Shown in pieces: positions 6,125 to 44,737 of a DNA stretch of 44,737 nt (positions are counted from its first letter, which is position 1; the number at the start of each line of letters is the position of its first letter). Location of the stretch: IMG/VR virus record IMGVR_UViG_3300011443_000023, positions 1 to 44,737 of that record. The stretch is one strand, 5' to 3'. The DNA comes from a virus. Its lineage: Duplodnaviria > Caudoviricetes. Both the position numbers and the translations under genes were made by a program. Under the pieces are notes generated by a model, which ran no database searches, was not told the DNA's origin, and was given only the letters and a program-made list of their open reading frames with translations.

Positions 6125-7794
6125 GCTGCTAATTTTTGAACCGCCTCGACCCCGGCTTCAGCGATCGGCTGCGACTTCATCGCCTGCTGCATCATCTCCT
6201 GCTGTTGCGCCGCCTGTTCCGCTGCCTGTTGCGCCTGCGCCCGTGCCGCCCGGTAGGCGGCGACCGCCTCGCTATCGCGCAAATACATCGATGGCATCCC
6301 GTCGCCGCGGGTCAGGTCGCGAAATGCCGCGTCCTCGTCCAGGTTGTCCATCACGGCGGCGCTCTGCATCGCGGTGATATACGGCATCCACAGTTCGAGC
6401 ATCGAGCCAAAGGCGGCCTTCTTGAGCGCCTGGAGTGCGAGCGCCATTCGGGACGTCTGAACCGCTTGTGGAAACATCATCACCATTTCACCCATGCTGT
6501 TACGCACGAGCGCCTCCTGCGGCGGCGCGGGAAATTTCCCGGCACGGAAGAGCAGCATGAAGACGCGCTCGAGCACAGGGTTGATGATCTCAGTGACAAG
6601 CAGAGTGAAGGCGGGACTGAACCGCGCCAGCTTTTCCGCCTCGCGCGCCCTGACCTCAGTCGCAGTGATCTGGCGGTCGAGCAGCGCAAACTGGTCGAAG
6701 AGCGAGCGGTGGAAAATCTCGCGGATCATCTCCTCCTTCCGTTTGATCAACTCCAATCCAAAGTCGATCCGACCGCCCGTGAGCCATTCTTGCGGGTGAG
6801 TGTCGCGGCTTATTCCGCCCATCGTCAGGCCGCCGGCCCGCAAGTCCGGAACCCCCTGCATGCTCTGCGGCATGATGATCCGCGGGTTCACGGTCACCTC
6901 GGCCATCGTGCTGACCAGCATCTCGAGGTAATTCACGCCGCGGATCTCCGCCAGTGCCTGCATCGCAGGAGACGCGCCGTAAACGCTCGCCTCGGACCAG
7001 CGCAGATAGCGCGTCCCAAATGCCGGATTTGCCTCATACCCTTCCTCCTTGCACTTCGTTTTCGAGGCCTCGTGCAGGTAACAGGAGGCGAACCGCATCC
7101 GCGACGGTCCGCCAGGTCCGCCGCGTTCCTTCTCGTCGCGCTCGTAAACCGCATGCAAGAACCGATGCCGCTTCGCCGGGTTCCGCTCATAGTCGTTGCG
7201 CACGATCTCCGGCACCACCGGGAACGCTTCCATCGCCTGGTCCGCCGTGTACTCCAATTCGCGGAAAACCGAGTTCACGCGGCCCTCGGAGTTCTCGGCA
7301 AGGCAGAAACTTCCGACGTCGAACGAGCGGAAAAAGATAGGTGATTCCATCCCCCCTTCAGCCCACAGACACGCAGTCCCAAAGCACGAGCGGTCGAGGA
7401 AGACCTCGTGAATCTTGCTGTAGAAGTTGCTGGCCTGGAGCCAATACTGCGCGATCTCAGCGCACCTGTGCAGCCAGGTTGTCACCGAGTCCGAGCCCTC
7501 GAGTTGGAACGGCGGTTTCCAGGTGAACCAGGGGGAATCGGCCGGCGTGATCCATGATACGCAGCCAGCCGCGAGCACACTGTTCGACTCGCTCGCCACC
7601 GTGTTCATCACTCGAAGGTCCGGGGTGTAGCCGGTCCCGATCGCCGTGTCCTGGCGGTTCACGCCGTAGTTGAGCGCCTGGACTTTGCGCGTCACGCACA
7701 TATTCCCGCACTCGTTCCACAGCGCGACCATGCCCGCCGCCTCTTCGCGCAGCCGCTGGTTGCGCCGGATCAACCCATCGGGGGACGTGTCCAT
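6121..7794 (-). CDS. Portal (head-tail connector) protein
   Basis: 557 aa; SNFY...FLD...FGTACL, YLRW...YGASP, ITATEV...EKL and EIINPVLER motifs typical of T7/BPP-1-like portals. Confidence 0.92.
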   Translation of the reverse strand: MDTSPDGLIRRNQRLREEAAGMVALWNECGNMCVTRKVQALNYGVNRQDTAIGTGYTPDLRVMNTVASESNSVLAAGCVSWITPADSPWFTWKPPFQLEGSDSVTTWLHRCAEIAQYWLQASNFYSKIHEVFLDRSCFGTACLWAEGGMESPIFFRSFDVGSFCLAENSEGRVNSVFRELEYTADQAMEAFPVVPEIVRNDYERNPAKRHRFLHAVYERDEKERGGPGGPSRMRFASCYLHEASKTKCKEEGYEANPAFGTRYLRWSEASVYGASPAMQALAEIRGVNYLEMLVSTMAEVTVNPRIIMPQSMQGVPDLRAGGLTMGGISRDTHPQEWLTGGRIDFGLELIKRKEEMIREIFHRSLFDQFALLDRQITATEVRAREAEKLARFSPAFTLLVTEIINPVLERVFMLLFRAGKFPAPPQEALVRNSMGEMVMMFPQAVQTSRMALALQALKKAAFGSMLELWMPYITAMQSAAVMDNLDEDAAFRDLTRGDGMPSMYLRDSEAVAAYRAARAQAQQAAEQAAQQQEMMQQAMKSQPIAEAGVEAVQKLAA

Positions 7795-8175
7795 TTACGC
7801 TGCGAGTTGCACCGCCCCACCGAGCGCCGGCCGCTGGTACTTCGGCGATTCTCCCGCGAAGACACTGCGCCCAGCACCGAACCGGCGGCGCGAGCTTCGT
7901 CGGTAATCCCGGCCAGCCTCGATAGCATCAACCCCGACCGAGGTCGGCGGTGACGGTGGCTTGTACTCGGGGATCTCGATCTGCTTGGACATCTCCATTT
8001 GCTGGCGGGCAAGCTGCATCGATTCAGCGTGCTGTTTCGCAGAAAGCTCGCGCCCAAGGCGTTGCTCACGCAGAGCCGCCCCCTGGTTCGCCCCTTTATG
8101 CAGTCGAGCAAGGCGCCCGTTGGGGCCGATCAGGCCCGGCTCGAAGTACGGCCCATCGCAGCATGAGTGTGTCAT
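7795..8175 (-). CDS. Small basic virion protein upstream of the portal gene (T7 gp7.3-like position)
   Basis: RLARLHKG N-terminus, Gln/Met-rich helix, C-terminal RRRFGAGRSVFAGE; abuts the portal start. Confidence 0.55.
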   Translation of the reverse strand: MTHSCCDGPYFEPGLIGPNGRLARLHKGANQGAALREQRLGRELSAKQHAESMQLARQQMEMSKQIEIPEYKPPSPPTSVGVDAIEAGRDYRRSSRRRFGAGRSVFAGESPKYQRPALGGAVQLAA

Positions 8176-8190
8176 CGCGGAGGGAACGGG

Positions 8191-8214
8191 GGGAAATCGA
8201 GCCACGAAAAGCAA
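8191..8214 (-). promoter_or_regulatory. Late-promoter-like motif TTGC-N13-ATTTCCC upstream of the portal block
   Basis: ttgcttttcgtggctcgatttccc in a short intergenic gap. Confidence 0.5.
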
Positions 8215-8223
8215 GTGGAGATT

Positions 8224-8577
8224 TCAGGGCGCCCGGAAGGGGAGAAACCGCGAGGAACGGTAAAATTTCATCCTGTTCTTCCGCTCAAACACGATCCATG
8301 GTTTCGGGACCGGCAGCCACCGCGCAGCAACCGACAGATCGCCCGCCAAGAGCCAAATCAGCCAGGCGTCGCCCTGCTCGTCTACGACCCACGGTTGACG
8401 CAGCACGTCCAGCGGCCAATAATGCCAGACGATGCGAACCATGGCGAAGGCGTCAGGCGTCGAGACAACGTACCCGTGCGCGAGGTGATGCCACAGGTCC
8501 TCCTCGAACGACCGAGCACAGGGCTCCGTTGTGTAAACGGCCATGGCGCGGAAAAGCGGCGGCGGCAAACTCACCAT
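8224..8577 (-). CDS. Hypothetical protein downstream of TerL
   Basis: 117 aa, overlaps the TerL stop, protein-like composition. Confidence 0.65.
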   Translation of the reverse strand: MVSLPPPLFRAMAVYTTEPCARSFEEDLWHHLAHGYVVSTPDAFAMVRIVWHYWPLDVLRQPWVVDEQGDAWLIWLLAGDLSVAARWLPVPKPWIVFERKNRMKFYRSSRFLPFRAP

Positions 8578-9902
8578 GACATTCTGGTTCCCATGATCGC
8601 ACGCTGCGGCCTGGCGCGCTCCTGCTCGCCAGTCTCATAGCGCGGGATCAACCCATTGACATCCGCCTCGGCCATAGTGCGCAGCGCGTCAGCAACGTGC
8701 GCCGCCCACGTTGCCAGTGGATCGCGCCTCTCTATCCCTTGTTTGTTGGCAGGCGCGCTCTCGTAGCTCTTGAGCCCCCGGACCCCGACCTCGCAGGCAG
8801 GCAGGCGAAACTCGAACGTGCCGAACAGGCTCGCGGCATGGTTGATCCCGTTCCACACGTCCGCGACCTGGGGCACAATGAGCATTCGGCCGAGCTGCGC
8901 CTCGCGCGCGTCCTGTTCGAACGTCCGGCCGGTGCGGGCGGTCTGTTTCGCATCGTGAGGCAGGTAGTGGATTCCGTAGTTGTATCCTTTTTGGCGCATG
9001 TGGTGGACGCGCTCGGCCAGCGTCAGGTTCAGTCCATAATCGCAGTCGATGAAACGGGTTACCCCAAACGGGAGGCGCTGCCAATACCACACCACTGTGT
9101 TTTGTGGACTCCCGAGGTCCCAGGAAGTGTGGACAGGCACCCGCCCGTCGACCACAAATGCCCCGATGCGCCCCTCAGCGAGCGCCGCGCTCATAAATCT
9201 GCCGTAAATGGCATTTTCGTTGGCGCTTGTGAAGTCGCACCAAAACTCCTGGCGGATCAGGGCATCGCTCATCCCCTGGCGCCGCTCGGCTTCGATGTCA
9301 GCCAAGCTGATGGACCGGGTATCGTCGACAGTAAGCACCTGGGCGAACCAATCAGGATCGCTCCGTGCCATCGTCAGCATGTCATAGAGATGGTTTTCGC
9401 CGCGTGGAGTGGCGTTGAACCAAGCGAAGCCGCCATTCTCCGCGAGGATCGGGCGAGTCAGATCCCATGCCAGTGGGTTCTGGAGAGCGTATTCCGAGAA
9501 CGCGACGCCAAAGAAGTTACCGCCGACCACGTCCAGGTTGTCTGTCCCGAACACTTGGATCGTCGAGCCATTGATGAGCGAGATTTTCATCTCAGTCTGG
9601 TTCGGCTCTTTGGCCAGGAGTTCGCGCGGGATGTGATCGATGACGCGCATCTTGTTGGCCACGTCGACGTTCTCCCAGAGCGCGCGCCGACCGAGGCGGG
9701 CGGTGGGGAAATAATACGCATAGTTCGCCATCGTCTTGCACGCGCGGACGAGCATTTTGTTGAGGAACACTTTGTCTTTTCCGCAACGTCGATGCCAAAT
9801 GCACAGCACGCGCTTGTGGGCGTCCATGGCGCGCCAAGCTGGCAACTGGTAGTCGCGCGGCGTGAATCGATGTGGGACCTGAATGACCACTGGTGTCAGC
9901 AT
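8571..9902 (-). CDS. Terminase large subunit
   Basis: PRDYQ (Q motif), WHRRCGKD (Walker A), FSEY (Walker B variant), ATPRGENH, QEFWCDF, SWDLG nuclease motif, HVADALR. Confidence 0.95.
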   Translation of the reverse strand: MLTPVVIQVPHRFTPRDYQLPAWRAMDAHKRVLCIWHRRCGKDKVFLNKMLVRACKTMANYAYYFPTARLGRRALWENVDVANKMRVIDHIPRELLAKEPNQTEMKISLINGSTIQVFGTDNLDVVGGNFFGVAFSEYALQNPLAWDLTRPILAENGGFAWFNATPRGENHLYDMLTMARSDPDWFAQVLTVDDTRSISLADIEAERRQGMSDALIRQEFWCDFTSANENAIYGRFMSAALAEGRIGAFVVDGRVPVHTSWDLGSPQNTVVWYWQRLPFGVTRFIDCDYGLNLTLAERVHHMRQKGYNYGIHYLPHDAKQTARTGRTFEQDAREAQLGRMLIVPQVADVWNGINHAASLFGTFEFRLPACEVGVRGLKSYESAPANKQGIERRDPLATWAAHVADALRTMAEADVNGLIPRYETGEQERARPQRAIMGTRMSW

Positions 9903-9975
9903 AGGACCAAAGTCCTATTCCGCGCAAGGACCGTGGGAGGCGCGCCTGACGGCCAGCTTTTTCTCGAGTACTGGG

Positions 9976-10269
9976 TCAGAGTTCGCGCTCCAGCGGCGAA
10001 AGGTCGCTCCAGTGTGTCACCGACTTTACGGGTCCACTCCATGCCCCATCGTCTTCCTGAGACATCCAACCCATCCCTGTCCATTGTCCGATCTCAAAAT
10101 GCGGGGTCATCGCGGTGAGAGACGGATTGAACGCCTGCCAATCGATGAACAGCAGAAAACATTTTCCTACATCATCGTCCGCAGGCTGTTTATCGCAATA
10201 GCGATGCCATAAAACAGGCATTGATTCAATCATGGCGTTCCACCGGAGCGGGATCGGCGGCGAGGTCAA
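9976..10269 (-). CDS. Hypothetical protein (ends in VTHW, DUF551-like)
   Basis: 97 aa, TTGA overlap with the TerS stop. Confidence 0.5.
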   Translation of the reverse strand: MTSPPIPLRWNAMIESMPVLWHRYCDKQPADDDVGKCFLLFIDWQAFNPSLTAMTPHFEIGQWTGMGWMSQEDDGAWSGPVKSVTHWSDLSPLEREL

Positions 10270-10748
10270 AGGTTGCGCACTTCAATCACGATGCGGCCGT
10301 CGTGGTCGTGCAACTCCGGCTCATACCATCCCGCCATTTTGTTGAGCCGGTCGATGGCATCGATTTTAGAGGGCGTCTTGACGTGCTCAGTTTGCCATTC
10401 TGCGGCATCCTCGCCGGCGCCAGTGACCCGGCGGGATCGTTTGTATTCCTGGCAAAGCGGGGAAGTTTCGTCCACTTCGCCGACCGGAGTTTTGATGATT
10501 TCGACCAATGAACGGGCGATTGTCTCGCGCTTCACGCCGAGCTTTTTCTCGAGTACTTCGGCGAAAGACGTCTGAAGCTCCGCGATTCTTGCGGCAATCT
10601 TGCAGTCGGCCAGGAGTCTCGATGCGGCCTCCATTGCGGTTTTGGTCGTGCCCCCTTGGGAGACGTGTTCGAGGTAAGCGGCGCAGGCGAACTGACCGGC
10701 CGCGATGCCCTGGCAGAATTTCTCGTGCTTGGGAGAAATCGGCAGCAT
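10266..10748 (-). CDS. Terminase small subunit
   Basis: SPKHEKFCQGI...AAY...AASRLL...IAARIAELQ...KIDAIDRLNKMAG; start at ATG 10748 (TGATG coupling). Confidence 0.85.
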   Translation of the reverse strand: MLPISPKHEKFCQGIAAGQFACAAYLEHVSQGGTTKTAMEAASRLLADCKIAARIAELQTSFAEVLEKKLGVKRETIARSLVEIIKTPVGEVDETSPLCQEYKRSRRVTGAGEDAAEWQTEHVKTPSKIDAIDRLNKMAGWYEPELHDHDGRIVIEVRNL

Positions 10749-11137: not shown

Positions 11138-11755
11138 TTAGCTGCCGGTCGCAGAGCCAATGGCTTTGCGAAACAAGCCCATCCCCGCGAGAAGCAGTCC
11201 GAAGAGCATCACGCCTGCACCGCCTTCCGGAACCGGCGGCTCATCGTCCGGGGGATCGTCGCCTGGAGGAGGCGTCGGCCCGTCGAAGAGCGTGTAGTGG
11301 GAAATCTGGTATTGCGAAGGATTGGTGGTCCAGAGGTTCCACGGGTTCTCTGGGATTGTGCTCGCCTGATTGCCAAGGGCAAAGAGGACGTAGCCGGCAT
11401 TCTGACCGTCGTATTTGGCGAGCACCCAGCGCCAGCCCGCCTCAATGCTCACGGTGTCGTCAGCATCGCCAAAGCCGCCGCCGGGTTCCTCGTTCTGCCC
11501 GCCATTCGAGGTGATGGTCCCCGAGAAGGAGAAGACGGTGTTGGCTTTGTAGAACCCGTCGATCTCACCAAGGGAGAGATCGAGGATGTCCTGGGCGTAG
11601 CCGAGTTCAGTGGCGAGGTTGGAGTTGCCGGGTTGACCCTCAACGATGCCGACCAGGAACGGCTTCTGGAGGCTCAGCGGATTATCGATGACGATGGCCG
11701 AGGCCGGAAAAGCCAGCACGAAGGCGGCCGCGAAGAGAGTGAAGACGGTTTTCAT
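11138..11755 (-). CDS. PEP-CTERM / VPDSG-CTERM-type exosortase substrate (secreted, surface-sorted protein)
   Basis: Signal peptide MKTVFTLFAAAFVLAFPASA, Pro/Asp linker, VPEGG followed by hydrophobic helix AGVMLFGLLLAGMGLF and basic RK. Confidence 0.85.
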   Translation of the reverse strand: MKTVFTLFAAAFVLAFPASAIVIDNPLSLQKPFLVGIVEGQPGNSNLATELGYAQDILDLSLGEIDGFYKANTVFSFSGTITSNGGQNEEPGGGFGDADDTVSIEAGWRWVLAKYDGQNAGYVLFALGNQASTIPENPWNLWTTNPSQYQISHYTLFDGPTPPPGDDPPDDEPPVPEGGAGVMLFGLLLAGMGLFRKAIGSATGS

Positions 11756-35274: not shown

Positions 35275-38116
35275 TCAGCTTCCATAGATGTTCACGTTGG
35301 GAATCAACCCCAGAATATTCAAGGCCAATGGACCGCGCGATTTCACGATGATCGTCAATTCATCGCGCAGCCGGCCGGCGGCTTGTTGCCGCACGAACCC
35401 AGAAAATGGCGGCGGCGGAAAGTCCTGGTCTTGCGGTGCCGACCGAAAGGGGAGCACGTAAAATGGCTCTTCCGGACCGTCCGCATATTGGCACCCGGAC
35501 GACTTGTACAAGCGGATGGCGAAAATCGGGACCGTCATCTTCCGGCCTTGTGCGGTGCCGTCTTGGAGCGGAAAATCGAGCGGCATCGGTTGCACCTCCG
35601 CTTCGCACGCCAGTCCGGCAGCCGCGAACGTCGACGGCGCCTCGAGCATGATCTGGCCGGCCGCGACCACCTCGCGCGTGTGCTCGCCGCCATCGGTGAC
35701 CACCTCGACCATCTCTCCATTCAGGTGATCCAATCCGCCGAGCGATGTCATCGGATCCACCCCCTTCGCCACTACCGCGGCGTCGATGTGGAACACCGGA
35801 TCAGTCCCGGCGTGCAGTCGGTCCCAGTGAGCGGAATCAAACCGCTCGATCCGCCGCGTCTCGACCCCGCCAACCGTCCGCCTCACCACGATCCACACCT
35901 CATCCGCCGCCCGGTTGTCGCCGTAGACGACTGAAACCGACTCGACAAATCCCGCCGTCGGATGCACCGCCCAGGCGACGACCTGTTCTGTCCGCTGATA
36001 TGTGCAGCTTAAAAGCTGGCCGTCATTGTTCACCGCCCACAGGATCTGGTCAGGATTCTGAGCATACGCGACCCGCCGCAGCCCGCTCCGCGTCAGGTGC
36101 CCGACCAGTTTGCTCACGTCCGGCGCCACATAGTTCTGCTCTTCGAACTGGTAGACATATTCCGCCAGCACCTGGCCGCCGCGCTGGATGAACAGAACGA
36201 CCGACCCGGCCATCAGCGCCTGGAATGGTTCTGACCCGTAGCGGCTGCGGCGCTCGACCACCGCATTGTCCGGTTTCAATCCCTCGTCCCCGCTATCCAG
36301 CAACCACTCCTCGGCTTGCGTCCCGATGATCATTCCGCGCTGCGAGGCCAGCCAGAGGATCGGATTCGCCTCCTGCGCCCGGATCTGAATCGTGATCGGA
36401 CTGTCCGCCTGCACTCCACGGCGAAAGTTTAAAAAATCATCGACCACGCTCCCCCAAAGTTTTTGTGGTTCGGTGCGCGTGCCGGCGAACCAGAGTCGCC
36501 CGTCACTGTGCAGGCAGACCGCCCGCGGAAACCCGCGCTCGTTCGACCAGGCGCCCTCACTCCAGTTGTTCGTCAGCTCGGTCGAATGCGCGGCACTGAT
36601 GATGTCCACCGTGGCAGTCTTGGGCGTTGTCACCGCGGTGATCTTTACCAACCCGAGAACCAGTGACTCCACCGACTCGAGGACGAACCGTGGCTTGGCC
36701 ACCCCGGCGGCGGCGCTCGCGCTGATCCCGGTCGCGCGCAGCCGCAAGATCGTTTCCTGCTCGACAATCGCTGATGCCGTCAGGTTCCGGTCGTTGACCC
36801 CGGTCCACTTATGGATCGGTTCCCATGTCCCCGCCGCCGTCTTTTCCTCGATGTAGACCGCTCCCTGCCAGATCCCCGTTGTCAGAAAGTCCCACCGCCC
36901 CTTCACCCTCAATTCGCTGGATGTCTTGTTTTGCGCAGGCCCTGCCGCCGGATCAAAAAGCAATTCTGCCGAGAGCGTGTCCCGAAAGTGACCCACCTCC
37001 CAAAAGCTGCCGACATGCCCGGCCGTGAATGTATCGGCGCTCGCCGTCAACGTCCGTCCAATCCCTGTCGTGTGCGAGAGTGCAACCGTCGTCGGCGAAA
37101 CATTCTCATCGAGCATCGGCGGCCACTTGATGACGCTCGCCAGTTCCGGCAATGGCGCCACCACATCCCGCTTTTTCAACATCGATGCCGGCACCGGCGC
37201 CTTGGCAAATCCTGGCCCGCTGAGCGAAATCGTGGCATACCCTGACTGGACGACATTCCAACTGTAAAGCTCGAGCATGTACGCCTGCCCGCCGGTCAAC
37301 GCCTTGTCGATAAACGCCGACTCGGTCGCAAAGGTTGCCACGCCCCCGACATACACCTCGTCCAGATACAGAGTGGCCCCCTCATTCGCCTGAAAATAGA
37401 TCCGCCAGGTGCCGGTCGTCGGAACCGTCAGGACCCCAGTGACCCGCCGCATCCATGAGCCCGTGGCCCCCGGCACTGCCGGCAGCGCCAGGCTTGTCAC
37501 GTCCGCCGCGCTCGTGGGTGTCTTGAAAAACGCCTCCTGAGTCCGCACCGCCATTACCGCCGCCGAGGTGCTCGGAAACGTCCCGGTCCACGGCATCCAC
37601 CACTCCATGTACGCCCTGCCCGCCTCGCCTGGAATCGTCGGTGCAGCCGCCGTCGATAAGTCAGCGAACAAATCAGTCAGCCTCCAATCCGTATCCGAAT
37701 AGCGGATCAACCGCTGCGGCCAATGTCCCTCGTGCGTCAGGAACATCAGATCATTGACCTGTCCATGCTGAATCCCATCCAGGTCGAGCTCGAGCCACGG
37801 CGTGGCAACCGGCGCGCCGCTCAGCGCGGAGCCGTCCCCGCGCCAAAACCGCATCGTCTGCGGGCCAAGCTCAAGTTGGAATTTCGTCGAGGCAGAGAAG
37901 TTGAAAGGAATTAATCTGCATTGCTTGTCGGGCATCGCCGCCATCCCGACATGCAGTAAGGGCGGTCGGCGAAACACGCCACCAAGGACGGATGGGATGA
38001 AGTTCCTTAACCGGGCGCATGCCTTCCGAAGATTCTCCAAATCCACGCGGCCAGCCAAGACCGGGTTGACCTCTCCAACATTGAAAGCGTTTAAAAGCAG
38101 TTTGATGGCAGTTCAC
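35275..38116 (-). CDS. Tail tubular protein B / nozzle (T7 gp12-like) with inserted PA14 domain; start codon problematic
   Basis: Frame extends upstream of the track start to LLNAFNVGEVNPVLAGRVDL; NFIP..GG..RRP, WSEGAWS..RGFP, LWGS..DDF, VLFIQR and AW..H motifs. In-frame TGA lies just upstream; the best start (GTG 38116) is one base out of frame. Confidence 0.88.
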
Positions 38117-38183
38117 GTTTGTGTTAAAAAGACGGACCCAGAAGCCGCGTCAACGGCCGCTGGGTCCTAACCCAATCCGTAGT

Positions 38184-38729
38184 ATGAATACGAATCAGGC
38201 TGGCAGCTTTCTGCCACAGTTCAGCGAAAAGGACAAACGCCGCTTCTGGAAGAAGGTGGAGAAGCGAGGAAAGGACGAGTGTTGGTTCTGGAGGGGCACC
38301 AAAGACGGCAATGGATATGGATTGTTTTTCATTAATGGGAGAAACCACCTCGCCCACCGCGTCAGTTGGACAATCCATTTTGGGGAGATTCCCCCAAAGA
38401 TTTGCGCTTGTCACCGCTGTGACCAGCCGCCGTGTGTCAACCCGTCTTGTATTTTCCTTGGCACACGAGCCGAAAACAACGCTGATTGCATCCGAAAGGG
38501 CAGAATGCGGCATGCTTGCGGCGAAAGAAGTGGGCCCCGCATGCATCCGGAGACCAGACAGAGAGGAGAGCGCCACTACAGAGCGATCCTCACCGAAACC
38601 AAAGTGCGTGAAATCCGTCGTTTGTATGCGTCGGGTCTGGCACGGAGAAACATTGCAGCCCTGTTCGGGATCAGCCAAGGGTGCGTAACCAACGTCGTAT
38701 CTCGCAAAACGTGGCGGCATATCTTGTGA
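38184..38729 (+). CDS. HNH homing endonuclease (antisense insertion upstream of the nozzle gene), paralog of 4033..4587
   Basis: RFWKKV...CWFW...GYG...AHRVSW...CHRCD...CVNP..IFLGT..EN; shares CGERSGPRMH and the C-terminal HTH with the paralog. Confidence 0.9.
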   Translation: MNTNQAGSFLPQFSEKDKRRFWKKVEKRGKDECWFWRGTKDGNGYGLFFINGRNHLAHRVSWTIHFGEIPPKICACHRCDQPPCVNPSCIFLGTRAENNADCIRKGRMRHACGERSGPRMHPETRQRGERHYRAILTETKVREIRRLYASGLARRNIAALFGISQGCVTNVVSRKTWRHIL

Positions 38730-38740
38730 GCTCGGGTCCA

Positions 38741-40183
38741 TTAGCTGGGTAGTTGAATATTTGAGCCACCGAAGCCCACAAGCCCCTCTGCCACGGGCAC
38801 TCCATCCACCGTCACAACGGAGGGGCGGGCTGTCGAGGCAAGGCAGGTGAGGCTGGTTCCAGGCTTCTGCCAGATGATGTTTCGCCCAACCTCGACGGTG
38901 GTGTCCTCGACGTAGACCGCCAGATGACTGCCGGAGTTCTCCAGATTGCGGAATGTGTTCCCAACGACCTCATTGAGCCCGCGTCCCCTGGGGGCCGATG
39001 AGCGCACAAGGCGGACGTAGCAGTGGCCAGCGTTCTCCAGATTGCACCCGCGAATCGATGACCGCTCACTGTCCGAGACCCAGATCCCCCGAGCCTCATC
39101 GGGAAAGTCGCAAGAGACGTTCGCCAGCCGCGTATTGCGAACCATCGAATCCCTCGCTCCATCGACCGAGATCCCAACCACGAAAGATGGACCTGTGATA
39201 TTCTCGACCTGACACCCGTCGATGATCCCCTGAGCATAAACGTAGCCGGAGGGGTCGTGCTCGGGAGGACGGCCACAAAGCTCGATTCCACAGCCAACCG
39301 CGCCATCAACCTTGCACTTGTCGTAAATGATCCCAGTCCCAAAACCAGCGGAAAAACCCATGCTCCCGCAGTTCCGGGAAACGCACCGGACAAACTGGGT
39401 CCGCTCGTGGTAGTAATCGTAGTTCGCGATCGTCGCCTCGATCCCGATCCGGCTCACATCCGCAAAAAGGCAGTTCTCCCAGACGCAGTCGCGCCAGTTG
39501 CTCCCGCCCCAGACACCGTTGTGGGTTTGATGAGTCGCCCCACCAACCCTTCCAATGAACCGGCTGTCACGGGCGGTGAGCCGGGTAAATCCAAAGTTCA
39601 GGGCCGCACCGATTTCGTTGAACGTATGGCAGTAAACCCGGCTTATCAGAATGTCCTCGTGCGGAGTCGTGATGAGGCTTCCGTCCTTCGAGATGCATCT
39701 GCGCCAGTTGTGAATGTGCATATCGAGCACCTTCATCCTGTGCCCGTGGTTTTCGTTCCCCTCGGAAAAAGCAATCCCATAGCAGGGATTCGAGGCGACA
39801 GGGTGGGTGCTGGTGAGTTCGAAATTCCTAAACGTGACATCGTCGGCATGGACCGTGATGCCGCGCAGCAGGTAGGCTGGAAGGTTCAGGTCGAGGGTGA
39901 AACTGAGAGCCGCCCCAGCGTCACTCTTGATCTCAGTATACCGGCCGGTGACCACCTTCGGCGTCGTCAGCGGGATGACGCCGCCCGAGCCTTCGCCGCG
40001 CAGCACCATCGAGCGGCCCGAGGCCAGAGCGGCATCAAACTGCGCCTCCGTGTCCACCATGGCGAACGGGCTTTCATCAACACTGACCGGCGGCCGGGCC
40101 GCTGCGCGCTCGGCGTACTCCTGCTCGGTCACCAAAGAATCCGGCGCCTCGCCCGAGACAGTGATGATTACAGGATCGCTCAT
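38741..40183 (-). CDS. Tailspike 3 / right-handed beta-helix protein
   Basis: FDAALASG start, ITVHADDVTFRNFELT, repeated G-I-x / N-C-x-F beta-helix rungs. Confidence 0.75.
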   Translation of the reverse strand: MSDPVIITVSGEAPDSLVTEQEYAERAAARPPVSVDESPFAMVDTEAQFDAALASGRSMVLRGEGSGGVIPLTTPKVVTGRYTEIKSDAGAALSFTLDLNLPAYLLRGITVHADDVTFRNFELTSTHPVASNPCYGIAFSEGNENHGHRMKVLDMHIHNWRRCISKDGSLITTPHEDILISRVYCHTFNEIGAALNFGFTRLTARDSRFIGRVGGATHQTHNGVWGGSNWRDCVWENCLFADVSRIGIEATIANYDYYHERTQFVRCVSRNCGSMGFSAGFGTGIIYDKCKVDGAVGCGIELCGRPPEHDPSGYVYAQGIIDGCQVENITGPSFVVGISVDGARDSMVRNTRLANVSCDFPDEARGIWVSDSERSSIRGCNLENAGHCYVRLVRSSAPRGRGLNEVVGNTFRNLENSGSHLAVYVEDTTVEVGRNIIWQKPGTSLTCLASTARPSVVTVDGVPVAEGLVGFGGSNIQLPS

Positions 40184-40803
40184 GCCGGCTTCAGTTCATA
40201 GCCAGGCACCTTCAATCCCGGAATCAGGGTATAGAGAATCTTCCGCTCACTGGTGCCGCCATTCTTTGGTGAAGACGGGATGCCCAGCACCTCCGCCGCC
40301 GCGATCGACGCCTCCCCCAGCTTGTCCTTCGGGCCGACATCTCCGACCAGCCCCCAGGCTACCAGCCCGTTTTCCAGGTTCTCCATCCGCACCCGACACC
40401 CGAGGACGACTGGTCCGACCAGTTGGCGTAGTTGAGGAGGGGTGACAGAGAATATGACGGATTCGGAATCGAGGTAGCGACGCGGATCGGTGTGGGCGTA
40501 GTCCGTATGCTCGTAGGCGGTGGGAGAAACGAAGTAGCCGGGGCAAGGATCGGAAGACTTCTGGTAGACCGGGTCCCCGTCGCCCTCACCAGTATCTGTC
40601 GCCACTCCCCACCAGTTGCCTGGGTAACCGGCGTTGGCGAGGTAGTCGAGAGCCACGTCGTCGTTCTCATGGTAGGTGCGGTAGCCTCCATCCCCGTCGA
40701 TCGACATCTTCGCCGTGTAGGACATGAAGATGCCACTCCAATAAACCTCGACGCCCTCAATCTCGGTGAGAATTTCGCCTTGTGGGATGGTGATATTGAT
40801 CAT
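40180..40803 (-). CDS. GH75 chitosanase-like glycoside hydrolase, probable endolysin
   Basis: MSIDGDG, YLDSESVIFSVTP, GLVGDVGP..KLGEASIAAAEVLG and NGG...ILY motifs; last gene of the membrane/lipoprotein cassette; start at ATG 40803 (ATGA coupling). Confidence 0.8.
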   Translation of the reverse strand: MINITIPQGEILTEIEGVEVYWSGIFMSYTAKMSIDGDGGYRTYHENDDVALDYLANAGYPGNWWGVATDTGEGDGDPVYQKSSDPCPGYFVSPTAYEHTDYAHTDPRRYLDSESVIFSVTPPQLRQLVGPVVLGCRVRMENLENGLVAWGLVGDVGPKDKLGEASIAAAEVLGIPSSPKNGGTSERKILYTLIPGLKVPGYELKPA

Positions 40804-40985
40804 GGCTTGGGTAGGGATTTCAGAACTTCCTGAAGGTCTTCTCTGATTGCTCGCTGCTCGATTTTGATCTCCTCCATCGACTCGCGCATCGCCGCAGCAT
40901 TCGACGAAATGCGCTGCCACAGCACTCCCACCGAGAAGACAGCCACGACCACAGTGATGAGAGACTGAAAGTTTCCATTTTTCAT
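40800..40985 (-). CDS. Small TM plus coiled-coil protein (lysis cassette)
   Basis: One TM segment, then an amphipathic coiled coil. Confidence 0.6.
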   Translation of the reverse strand: MKNGNFQSLITVVVAVFSVGVLWQRISSNAAAMRESMEEIKIEQRAIREDLQEVLKSLPKP

Positions 40986-41371
40986 GGGGTGACCGGCAAC
41001 TGAGCCGGATGCAGAAGGCGGAACTCTTCCAACTCCTTGGCGAGGCGGAGTTTTTCGACGTCGACCTTGAATCCTGCCTTGGTCACGCCCGCCCGTGTTG
41101 CGGCAATGTCAGTCGCCTTGGAGGCGGCGATCCCGGCCTCCGCGACGTTCTCGCCGCTCTTGGCGACCAGAGCCGCGCCGATCAGTTGCATCGCATCCTG
41201 AAACGGCTGATTCATTTTGTTGTGGAGGATTGCCGTGCCGTCGCGGGTGATCACCACCGTCGTGTTCCCGGCAAGGTGACCGCGGTCGGCATATGAAGCT
41301 CCGCTCGGCAAGGTCAAGGTCCTTCCAGTCTGGCACGCAGGCAGCATCAGCACTGGAAGGAGGTACTTCAT
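40982..41371 (-). CDS. Lipoprotein, spanin candidate
   Basis: MKYLLPVLMLPA-C lipobox-like signal; ATGA-coupled at both ends. Confidence 0.6.
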   Translation of the reverse strand: MKYLLPVLMLPACQTGRTLTLPSGASYADRGHLAGNTTVVITRDGTAILHNKMNQPFQDAMQLIGAALVAKSGENVAEAGIAASKATDIAATRAGVTKAGFKVDVEKLRLAKELEEFRLLHPAQLPVTP

Positions 41372-41490
41372 CGGCTGGAAATCTCCCCGGCGATGAACTC
41401 GCCGATGGCGCGATCGATCGGATCGTCCGCACGGTCGAGCGTGCTGCACCCCGCCAGCGCAAGCGCCAGGATGATCAGGGCGATCTTCAT
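41368..41490 (-). CDS. 40-aa lipoprotein
   Basis: MKIALIILALALAG-CSTLDRADDPIDRAIGEFIAGEISSR with canonical LAGC lipobox; coupled at both ends; too short for the ORF track. Confidence 0.7.
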   Translation of the reverse strand: MKIALIILALALAGCSTLDRADDPIDRAIGEFIAGEISSR

Positions 41491-41678
41491 CCGCGAAAGT
41501 TGAGCTTAGGGCCAGCACCCAACAAACCGAATCCGTACAGCAACCAGAGGATGACAGCGACGACGGCGACCCCAACGATGATCTTGGGGAACGGCTGGGG
41601 CATTGGCACGTACGTGAGTAGAAGCCAAAGTAAGAAGCCAATGACGGCGAGGGTGAGGATGAGAGTGATGATGCTCAT
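41487..41678 (-). CDS. Two-TM small membrane protein (Thivi_2564-like), holin candidate
   Basis: Two TM helices joined by YVPMPQPFPKI. Confidence 0.7.
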   Translation of the reverse strand: MSIITLILTLAVIGFLLWLLLTYVPMPQPFPKIIVGVAVVAVILWLLYGFGLLGAGPKLNFRG

Positions 41679-43962: not shown

Positions 43963-44727
43963 TCAGTTCATCTTGGTGGCCGTAAAATACGATCCCGTGC
44001 CAACGATGGTGGTGGAGGCACCGCTGGTGGAGGCAAACATCAACTGGACGGTCCCGGCATTAACCCCGTTGGACACCAGCCCCGTGATGAAGACTGAACC
44101 GCTGGCAGTATTAACTGTGCCCAGGGTCAGTGTCGCATCGGCAGTGATTTCCCTGCTGGAGGAGGAACCGCGGGCCTGGGCGCCGACCGTCGCGGCAGTG
44201 GGAACATCGAGGGCGAATCTGGTGTCCGCCCCAGCAGCATTGGTCAGGAGCATAGAGAACTGGAACGACCAGACCTCGCCAGCAGCGATGGCAAAGGCCA
44301 TGCCGGTGATGTTGACCGCCGTGGTGGAGGTAGTCGGTTGGTTGGAGGTGAGATAGCCCTTGGCGGTGGCCCCACCGGCGGCGCTAGCGGCCCATTTGAC
44401 GCCGGTGGCCTCGGCGGAGTCAGCGGTGAGGACGTGGCCGTTGGTGCCCGCGGTTAGCTTGGCGGCGGTATTGGCCCCGGTGCCCACAGCAAGGTCGCCT
44501 TTGGCATCGAAGATGGCGTCGGTGGCCACTGACCCTGCGGCCGGGATAGTTGCCTCGAGGGCAACGATTTTGTCGCGGAGGGCGTTTTTGGTCGGCGCCG
44601 AGAGGTTGCCGTCCCAGGTGGTGGCGTTGTAGGCGTCGTCACCGACCTCCAACTTGTTGGCCTGAAGGGTGCCTGTTGGCACAGTGTTTATGATGGCGTT
44701 GGCAGCAGCGGAGTTGTCAACAATGAG
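43963..44727 (-). CDS. Tailspike 1, C-terminal 254 aa (continuation of 1536..1)
   Basis: In frame with 1536..1 once the 10-nt overlap is removed; AKGDLAVGTGA...GTNGHVLTADSAEATGVKW fibre motif and C-terminal beta-sandwich. Confidence 0.85.
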   Translation of the reverse strand, partial: LIVDNSAAANAIINTVPTGTLQANKLEVGDDAYNATTWDGNLSAPTKNALRDKIVALEATIPAAGSVATDAIFDAKGDLAVGTGANTAAKLTAGTNGHVLTADSAEATGVKWAASAAGGATAKGYLTSNQPTTSTTAVNITGMAFAIAAGEVWSFQFSMLLTNAAGADTRFALDVPTAATVGAQARGSSSSREITADATLTLGTVNTASGSVFITGLVSNGVNAGTVQLMFASTSGASTTIVGTGSYFTATKMN

Positions 44728-44737
44728 ACCCGTGTAG
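44728..44737. repeat. Terminal 10-nt direct repeat (circular assembly overlap), copy 2
   Basis: Identical to 1-10. Confidence 0.9.

Follow-up and report, generated by a model that had tools for sequence, protein, structure and literature searches.

Which protein opens the host cell wall at the end of infection is the question raised by the IMG/VR record IMGVR_UViG_3300011443_000023, a tailed, soil-type phage (Caudoviricetes) of 44,737 nucleotides (nt) with a CheckV completeness of 100%, which encodes portal, terminase, capsid, and tail proteins together with an integrase. The whole record is referred to below as the window, and all window coordinates refer to it. At positions 41678–40180, five minus-strand genes follow one another with a 4-nt ATGA overlap at each junction, and the last of them (40180..40803) encodes a 207-amino-acid (aa) enzyme related to chitosanases of glycoside hydrolase family 75 (GH75). 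The first-pass annotation described here a coupled cassette of a two-helix membrane protein, two lipoproteins, a transmembrane/coiled-coil protein, and an enzyme with DxDG and GD..GP..GEAS motifs, and its coordinates, overlaps, and motifs all proved real. The comparisons reported here make it likely that the 207-aa protein serves as the phage's endolysin. A narrower proposal, built by analogy with a characterized relative, is that the peptidoglycan whose glycan strands it cuts is de-N-acetylated, the host being probably verrucomicrobial; this we regard as somewhat better supported than its negation.

The enzyme is a homolog of V-Csn, a soil viral GH75 chitosanase of known structure (PDB 7TVL–7TVP; Wu et al. 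2022, PMC9485262), and is not a member of Pfam family PF07335 by threshold. A PDB sequence search aligned the two proteins at E 2e-26 with 34–35% identity. An AlphaFold (AF2) model built from a 90-row alignment reached a predicted local distance difference test score (pLDDT) of 96.9 and, in Foldseek, superposed on V-Csn with a template modelling score (TM-score) of 0.84, a root-mean-square deviation of 1.7–2.2 Å, and E 2e-22; both domains match, the double-psi beta-barrel catalytic domain and domain 2 of V-Csn. The motifs D36-G-D38-G and G154-D155-x-G-P...G163-E164-A-S166 bring D36, D38, D155, and E164 into alignment with V-Csn D34, D36, D148, and E157. D38, D155, and E164 are invariant across the 90 aligned homologs; all of the 65 phage homologs have D155 and E164, 64 of them have D38, and position 36 is occupied by Asp in 53 and by Asn in 11. 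Structure prediction thus bore out the suggested GH75-type fold with its catalytic Asp and Glu in the GD...GE motif, whereas the accompanying profile search against Glyco_hydro_75 (PF07335) did not, the enzyme scoring 14.9 bits (E 0.031) against a cut-off of 27 bits. Among the aligned homologs, 49 of 90 match PF07335 at E 0.1 or better, and searches of Pfam, PHROGs, and NCBIfam gave the enzyme no name at E 0.01–0.1 (Pfam: none at E 0.01). The GH75 assignment therefore follows from the sequence and fold match to V-Csn and not from the PF07335 score. The protein is acidic (net charge −13, isoelectric point 4.5), and its N-terminus is acidic and non-hydrophobic, with no signal peptide; of the phage homologs, 1 of 65 begins with a signal-like N-terminus, compared with 22 of 73 from bacteria. 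A tblastn search of the enzyme against 50,697 annotated phage records returned no match, hence no cultured relative there. Short GH75 forms of 148–169 aa also occur (loci L062, L067, L069, L072, L074, and L076), which lack the middle domain 2 and keep the catalytic segments.

Direct comparative support for the endolysin slot comes from an exchange of genes at this position. A search with the first gene of the cassette (63 aa) gave 13 viral loci, and a metagenome search with the third (129 aa) gave three, namely the window's own locus, L172, which includes the cassette but ends before the enzyme, and L173. Locus L158 has all four upstream genes, at 79, 56, 67, and 80% identity to those of the window, and its enzyme slot holds a different, coupled 172-aa gene and no GH75; DNA identity between the two phages stops at the start codon of this gene. 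Pfam and PDB sequence searches gave the 172-aa protein no name. It is taken as a CHAP protein because Atlas assigns it there by features (0.98) and by predicted structure (TM-score 0.93) and because it matches two PHROGs endolysin families (E 1e-4 and 2e-3). L173 carries the cassette with this CHAP-type gene as well (the two proteins agree at 113 of about 170 residues), and L002 carries it with a GH75 enzyme 91% identical to that of the window, even though for three of the four upstream genes L158 is closer to the window than L002 is. The readable slots in four cassette contigs are thus occupied by GH75 in two cases and by a CHAP-type gene in two. There is no GH75 elsewhere on the L158 contig, which is only 46% complete. 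A search for further swaps that started from one upstream membrane family recovered no contig beyond the four used as input, and a second such family was too diverse to be usable as a query.

The family-wide gene context is in agreement with this position. An alignment search yielded 75 viral GH75 loci, whose genes were called with a purpose-written script; the context count excluded loci at contig edges, 3 loci in which no GH75 was called, and 9 near-duplicates. A small gene (at most 260 aa) with a transmembrane helix or a lipobox lies directly upstream of GH75 in 28 of 60 loci versus 7 of 148 size-matched control genes (p 5e-12). The share of membrane or lipobox genes is 0.19 at position −5 and climbs to 0.44 at −1 (background 0.10), then returns to background within about three genes downstream. 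Recognized holins lie near GH75 in L006, L012, L045, and L078; in the last, a Chthoniobacter prophage, the holin lies five genes upstream of it. The phage homologs in L016 and L059 bear an N-terminal PG_binding_1 domain, which was found in 6 of 120 homologs among the matches listed. Translational coupling was dropped as evidence, as 46 of 63 GH75 genes are coupled versus 160 of 276 similar-sized background phage genes; among bacterial chromosomal homologs the figure is 5 of 68.

Several related arrangements were observed alongside. The L078 cluster (7267–10600) comprises a holin, a protein with three transmembrane helices, nuclease-like and patatin-like proteins (both recognized by eye), a lipoprotein, and GH75; the patatin-like phospholipase may take part in envelope breakdown. 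In a Mu-like Chthoniobacter prophage (L081:9161–13802), GH75 follows a gene for four transmembrane helices and stands just ahead of the terminase genes, and Mu-like phages keep their lysis genes just before the terminase genes. PG_binding_1 and GH75 are joined in five myxobacterial chromosomal proteins, mostly from Archangium (L108, L127, L135, L141, and L142), which are candidates for enzymes used in predation on bacteria with de-acetylated walls. In soil Verrucomicrobiota, mostly Chthoniobacterales and including Ca. Udaeobacter, 21 GH75 genes that stand alone and encode no signal peptide group in one tight clade (e.g., L083, L087, L091, L092, and L094).

The absence of any amidase, lysozyme, or peptidase elsewhere in the genome, as first noted by eye, stands as far as the searches go: no endolysin family was found in the window among 50 listed open reading frames (Pfam, PHROGs) or in six-frame searches for 14 Pfam families, but the CHAP-fold gene of L158 likewise escaped Pfam, which limits this negative. 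Six-frame searches of 43 GH75 contigs of at least 30 kb covered nine Pfam endolysin families and the L158 protein, with GH25 and PF11860 added for 24 contigs. Only two matched any of the nine families: G024, with an M15 domain inside a 1311-aa frame, and G029, with a GH108 gene in its own holin/spanin-like cassette and the GH75 gene outside it, near the contig end. G029 was set aside on account of this location, though it is still counted among the two. Hydrolases are reported on 38% (30–50 kb) and 45% (at least 50 kb) of soil viral contigs in a recent survey (10.1101/2024.12.20.629349); the binomial p of 2/43 versus 38% is 4e-7, with the two figures coming from different pipelines. Too few candidates were available for a same-pipeline control: a single close contig of 23.6 kb, which is 45% complete and lacks GH75, and four that are only distantly related. 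With this limited sensitivity, the apparent scarcity of other endolysins is taken as supporting evidence only.

The verrucomicrobial host guessed at first pass is indicated independently by two signs. Outside the cassette, the gene at 11138..11755 (minus strand) encodes a secreted protein with a VPDSG-CTERM-like anchor, which served as a host marker. This protein itself matches no family, and 28 of its 57 homologs, one of them from a Verrucomicrobia bin, carry PF18205, which one source names VPDSG-CTERM, an anchor that we take to be verrucomicrobial. The gene sits among early genes and has close homologs on several 20–60 kb contigs; its product is possibly a phage-borne surface protein with a role in superinfection exclusion. 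The enzyme tree (137 rows, with L045 dropped as a fragment and the best 80 of 142 genome matches included) places the window enzyme in a branch made up of 38 viral rows and 4 from Verrucomicrobiota, with a Shimodaira–Hasegawa-like approximate likelihood ratio (SH-aLRT) support of 100; two of the four are Chthoniobacter prophages. Marker and tree together make a verrucomicrobial host likely. Regarding the wall chemistry, the first-pass statement that Akkermansia peptidoglycan contains non-N-acetylated glucosamine agrees with published data: de-N-acetylation affects about 87% of the muropeptides of A. muciniphila (10.1101/2023.04.17.537164; also PMC10688800), and those of Verrucomicrobium spinosum mostly carry non-acetylated glucosamine (GlcNH2), which has been proposed as a phylum trait (PMC12283558).

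A mechanism can be outlined from these elements. The enzyme would accumulate in the cytoplasm late in infection and be released by a membrane protein of the cassette (63 or 61 aa), after which the lipoproteins would disrupt the outer membrane in a spanin-like manner. In the structure of its complex, V-Csn uses D148 and D36 to hold the glucosamine (GlcN) at subsite −2 by its free amine (PMC9485262). By transfer, the window enzyme would be an inverting hydrolase with E164 as the acid and D38 as the base, and D38 and D155 would grip the same amine. In a strand of alternating GlcN and N-acetylmuramic acid (MurNAc), GlcN at −2 would put MurNAc at −1, so the cut would be of the muramidase type, and activity on chitosan would then amount to substrate mimicry.

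A number of points weigh against this interpretation. No assay of any GH75 protein on peptidoglycan was found in the literature searched. The holin and spanin models of Pfam, PHROGs, and NCBIfam recognize none of the cassette genes, the two-helix protein family stands apart from recognizable lysis genes in 11 of 12 other phage loci (judged by eye; the twelfth was not called), and only 3 of 146 scanned GH75 neighbors match a Pfam holin. Three contigs without GH75, the CHAP-bearing one included, likewise gave zero for all nine Pfam families; for GH19 and PF11860 there was no positive control that matched, and the 43 contigs include near-duplicates, with only 21 being at least 90% complete. Near V-Csn-like genes, and not in the window, there is a gene of 153–157 aa with a weak match to an endolysin PHROG (E 3e-4). 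As to the host, a proteobacterial one was predicted for V-Csn by Wu et al. (PMC9485262), related enzymes are also found in Bacteroidota and myxobacteria, the tree is a quick version rooted at the midpoint, and the verrucomicrobial wall descriptions cover two species only. The 153–157-aa gene occurs in 10 of 80 sequences searched, always near V-Csn-like GH75 genes (L189:1368–1829; L035, L037, L039, L042, L043, L047, L052, L053, and L068). By eye, its product resembles an M15 peptidase with the zinc ligands replaced and an invariant LFWYG, and a PDB sequence search with it gave chance matches only; the gene may provide an additional lysis function there, or its product may be an endolysin that has lost or changed its activity, or else an accessory protein that binds the wall.

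Among other explanations, the best survivor is that the enzyme is an endolysin with no preference for de-acetylated glycans, which cuts ordinary peptidoglycan and takes chitosan as a side substrate. This is unlikely, though a serious contender, since the slot, the neighbors, and the scarcity of other endolysins fit it equally well. The weak fold matches of the model include other double-psi-barrel proteins, a fold that MltA and RlpA use on peptidoglycan, and the fusions to PG_binding_1 are also found in myxobacteria. What turns the balance towards specificity is the pair of carboxylates on the free amine at −2 in the V-Csn complex (PMC9485262), the conservation of their counterparts D38 and D155 in 64 and 65 of the 65 phage homologs, and a host signal pointing to a phylum with de-acetylated walls.

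Distinctly improbable is a depolymerase, acting at the lysis stage or linked to the virion, whose target is a different envelope polymer rich in glucosamine, such as a capsule or exopolysaccharide, with the true endolysin having escaped detection. The next gene after the enzyme, encoding a 480-aa beta-helix protein, is likewise coupled to it, the enzyme gene lies among tail-spike genes, and the oversight of the L158 CHAP-fold gene by Pfam means that a hidden endolysin is possible. Against this reading, the enzyme is exchanged one for one with a CHAP-fold protein and has homologs with peptidoglycan-binding domains, and no tail-attachment domain is seen in the window enzyme, whose model is one compact enzyme. 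Least probable of all, and very much so, is the published reading of V-Csn, an auxiliary metabolic chitosanase helping the host to feed on chitin or chitosan: V-Csn indeed hydrolyzes AZCL-chitosan, optimally near pH 5, and the E157Q substitution nearly abolishes this (PMC9485262), the GH75 gene of G029 lies outside a complete GH108 cassette, and bacterial homologs include secreted forms with type IX secretion system tails, but the gene context of the window enzyme (a late cassette, no export signal for reaching an insoluble external polymer, and the swap with a CHAP-fold gene) is not that of an auxiliary metabolic gene, only one of the two soluble proteins assayed was active, at 20 µg per assay, endo-chitosanase activity being shown among phage GH75 proteins for V-Csn only, and the main text of the V-Csn paper never uses the words peptidoglycan, lysis, or holin, nor the six supplements peptidoglycan, endolysin, or lysis (PMC9485262).

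The four genes ahead of the enzyme are candidates for the other lysis functions. The first gene (41487..41678, minus strand, as are all five) encodes a 63-aa protein with two transmembrane helices, which matches no holin model and belongs to the Thivi_2564 family (NF041949, 35.9 bits, cut-off 33); its homologs in other phages adjoin packaging, structural, or replication genes, as judged by eye. It is followed by a predicted 40-aa lipoprotein (41368..41490; lipobox LAGC, Cys15), o-spanin-like, 49–74% identical in three sister cassettes and with only signal-peptide-level matches. Next comes a predicted 129-aa lipoprotein (40982..41371), spanin-like, with an atypical lipobox LPAC (Cys13) where homologs show the more typical LTGC, LASC, and LCAC; it is 51–71% identical in L002, L158, and L173 and matches no family. 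The fourth gene (40800..40985) encodes a 61-aa protein with an N-terminal transmembrane helix and a coiled-coil-like tail, i-spanin-like or holin-like, 80% identical in L158 and 47% in L002, with no lysis-family match. This spanin-like set of an inner-membrane transmembrane/coiled-coil protein and lipoproteins (61, 129, and 40 aa) accompanies both GH75 and CHAP enzymes. From such features, the 63- or the 61-aa protein is the unproven holin candidate and the 61-, 129-, and 40-aa proteins are equally unproven spanin candidates. Two-helix proteins of the Thivi_2564-like and DUF3309 types recur in phage late operons (window 41487–41678; L159–L170; L035, L039, and L190; L038, L041, L043, and L053), where several loci have them immediately following GH75 and other loci have them amid packaging genes; they may be unrecognized holins.

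Some features of the record lie farther from the cassette. Its ends (1–1536 and 43963–44737, minus strand) have 10 nt in common, and a tail-spike frame appears continuous across them, which makes circular permutation of the genome probable. There are three or four spike or beta-helix genes in the window. An HNH endonuclease gene (38121–38729, plus strand) lies on the opposite strand within the late operon, between beta-helix and tail genes, and no notable repeats were found at 38000–38800.

A broader proposal is that phage GH75 proteins, V-Csn included, form a new catalytic class of endolysin, namely muramidases built on a double-psi barrel that recognize de-N-acetylated peptidoglycan by its free amine. 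Such enzymes would be the means by which phages deal with verrucomicrobial walls that resist lysozyme, and their genes would mark phages infecting such hosts; we consider this proposal evenly poised between right and wrong. No paper proposing GH75 as an endolysin class was found in the literature searched, and one study lists Glyco_hydro_75, without comment, among the domain matches of four streptococcal endolysins (PMC12294143). If true, the proposal would add a glycoside hydrolase family and a fold to the endolysin catalogue and would turn the best-characterized auxiliary metabolic gene of soil viruses into a core lysis gene, changing the counts of viral chitin turnover. An enzyme needing de-N-acetylated peptidoglycan would also be a probe for such wall chemistry, making the suggestion that these walls typify Verrucomicrobiota testable. 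V-Csn and its catalytic mutants have already been expressed and crystallized, so the test would be cheap.

Compared with known systems, the window enzyme is closest to V-Csn, which it resembles in identity, fold, both domains, the four acidic residues, and its upstream neighbors: on V-Csn's own contig (L189), a 104-aa membrane gene is followed by a transmembrane/long coiled-coil gene coupled directly upstream of V-Csn. The window enzyme differs in lacking the C-terminal extension (the match stops at V-Csn residue 189 of 224), in standing on a different tree branch from V-Csn's close relatives L043 and L053, and in being read here as a lysis enzyme, V-Csn having been classed as an auxiliary metabolic chitosanase (PMC9485262). 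With CHAP-domain endolysins (PF05257), the likeness is the same slot in L158 and L173. CHAP proteins are Cys/His amidases or peptidases that cut the peptide side of peptidoglycan, so they should be indifferent to glycan acetylation, and a CHAP protein as the alternative occupant would thus fit a host wall that resists lysozyme-type enzymes. GH19 chitinase-like phage endolysins likewise belong to a chitin-turnover family found beside lysis genes, but have the lysozyme fold in contrast to the double-psi barrel of GH75. They lie near a holin or spanin in 59 of 68 phage cases, and the lysis class of the same survey comprises GH19, GH28, and lyases, GH75 being absent from the parts seen (10.1101/2024.12.20.629349). 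Finally, the window cassette shares with Gram-negative holin–endolysin–spanin cassettes the small transmembrane genes, the lipoproteins, and a single signal-less hydrolase in a coupled late cluster; it departs from them in that models for holins, spanins, and endolysins match none of its components, in having two lipoproteins instead of one, and in a two-helix protein of the Thivi_2564 family.

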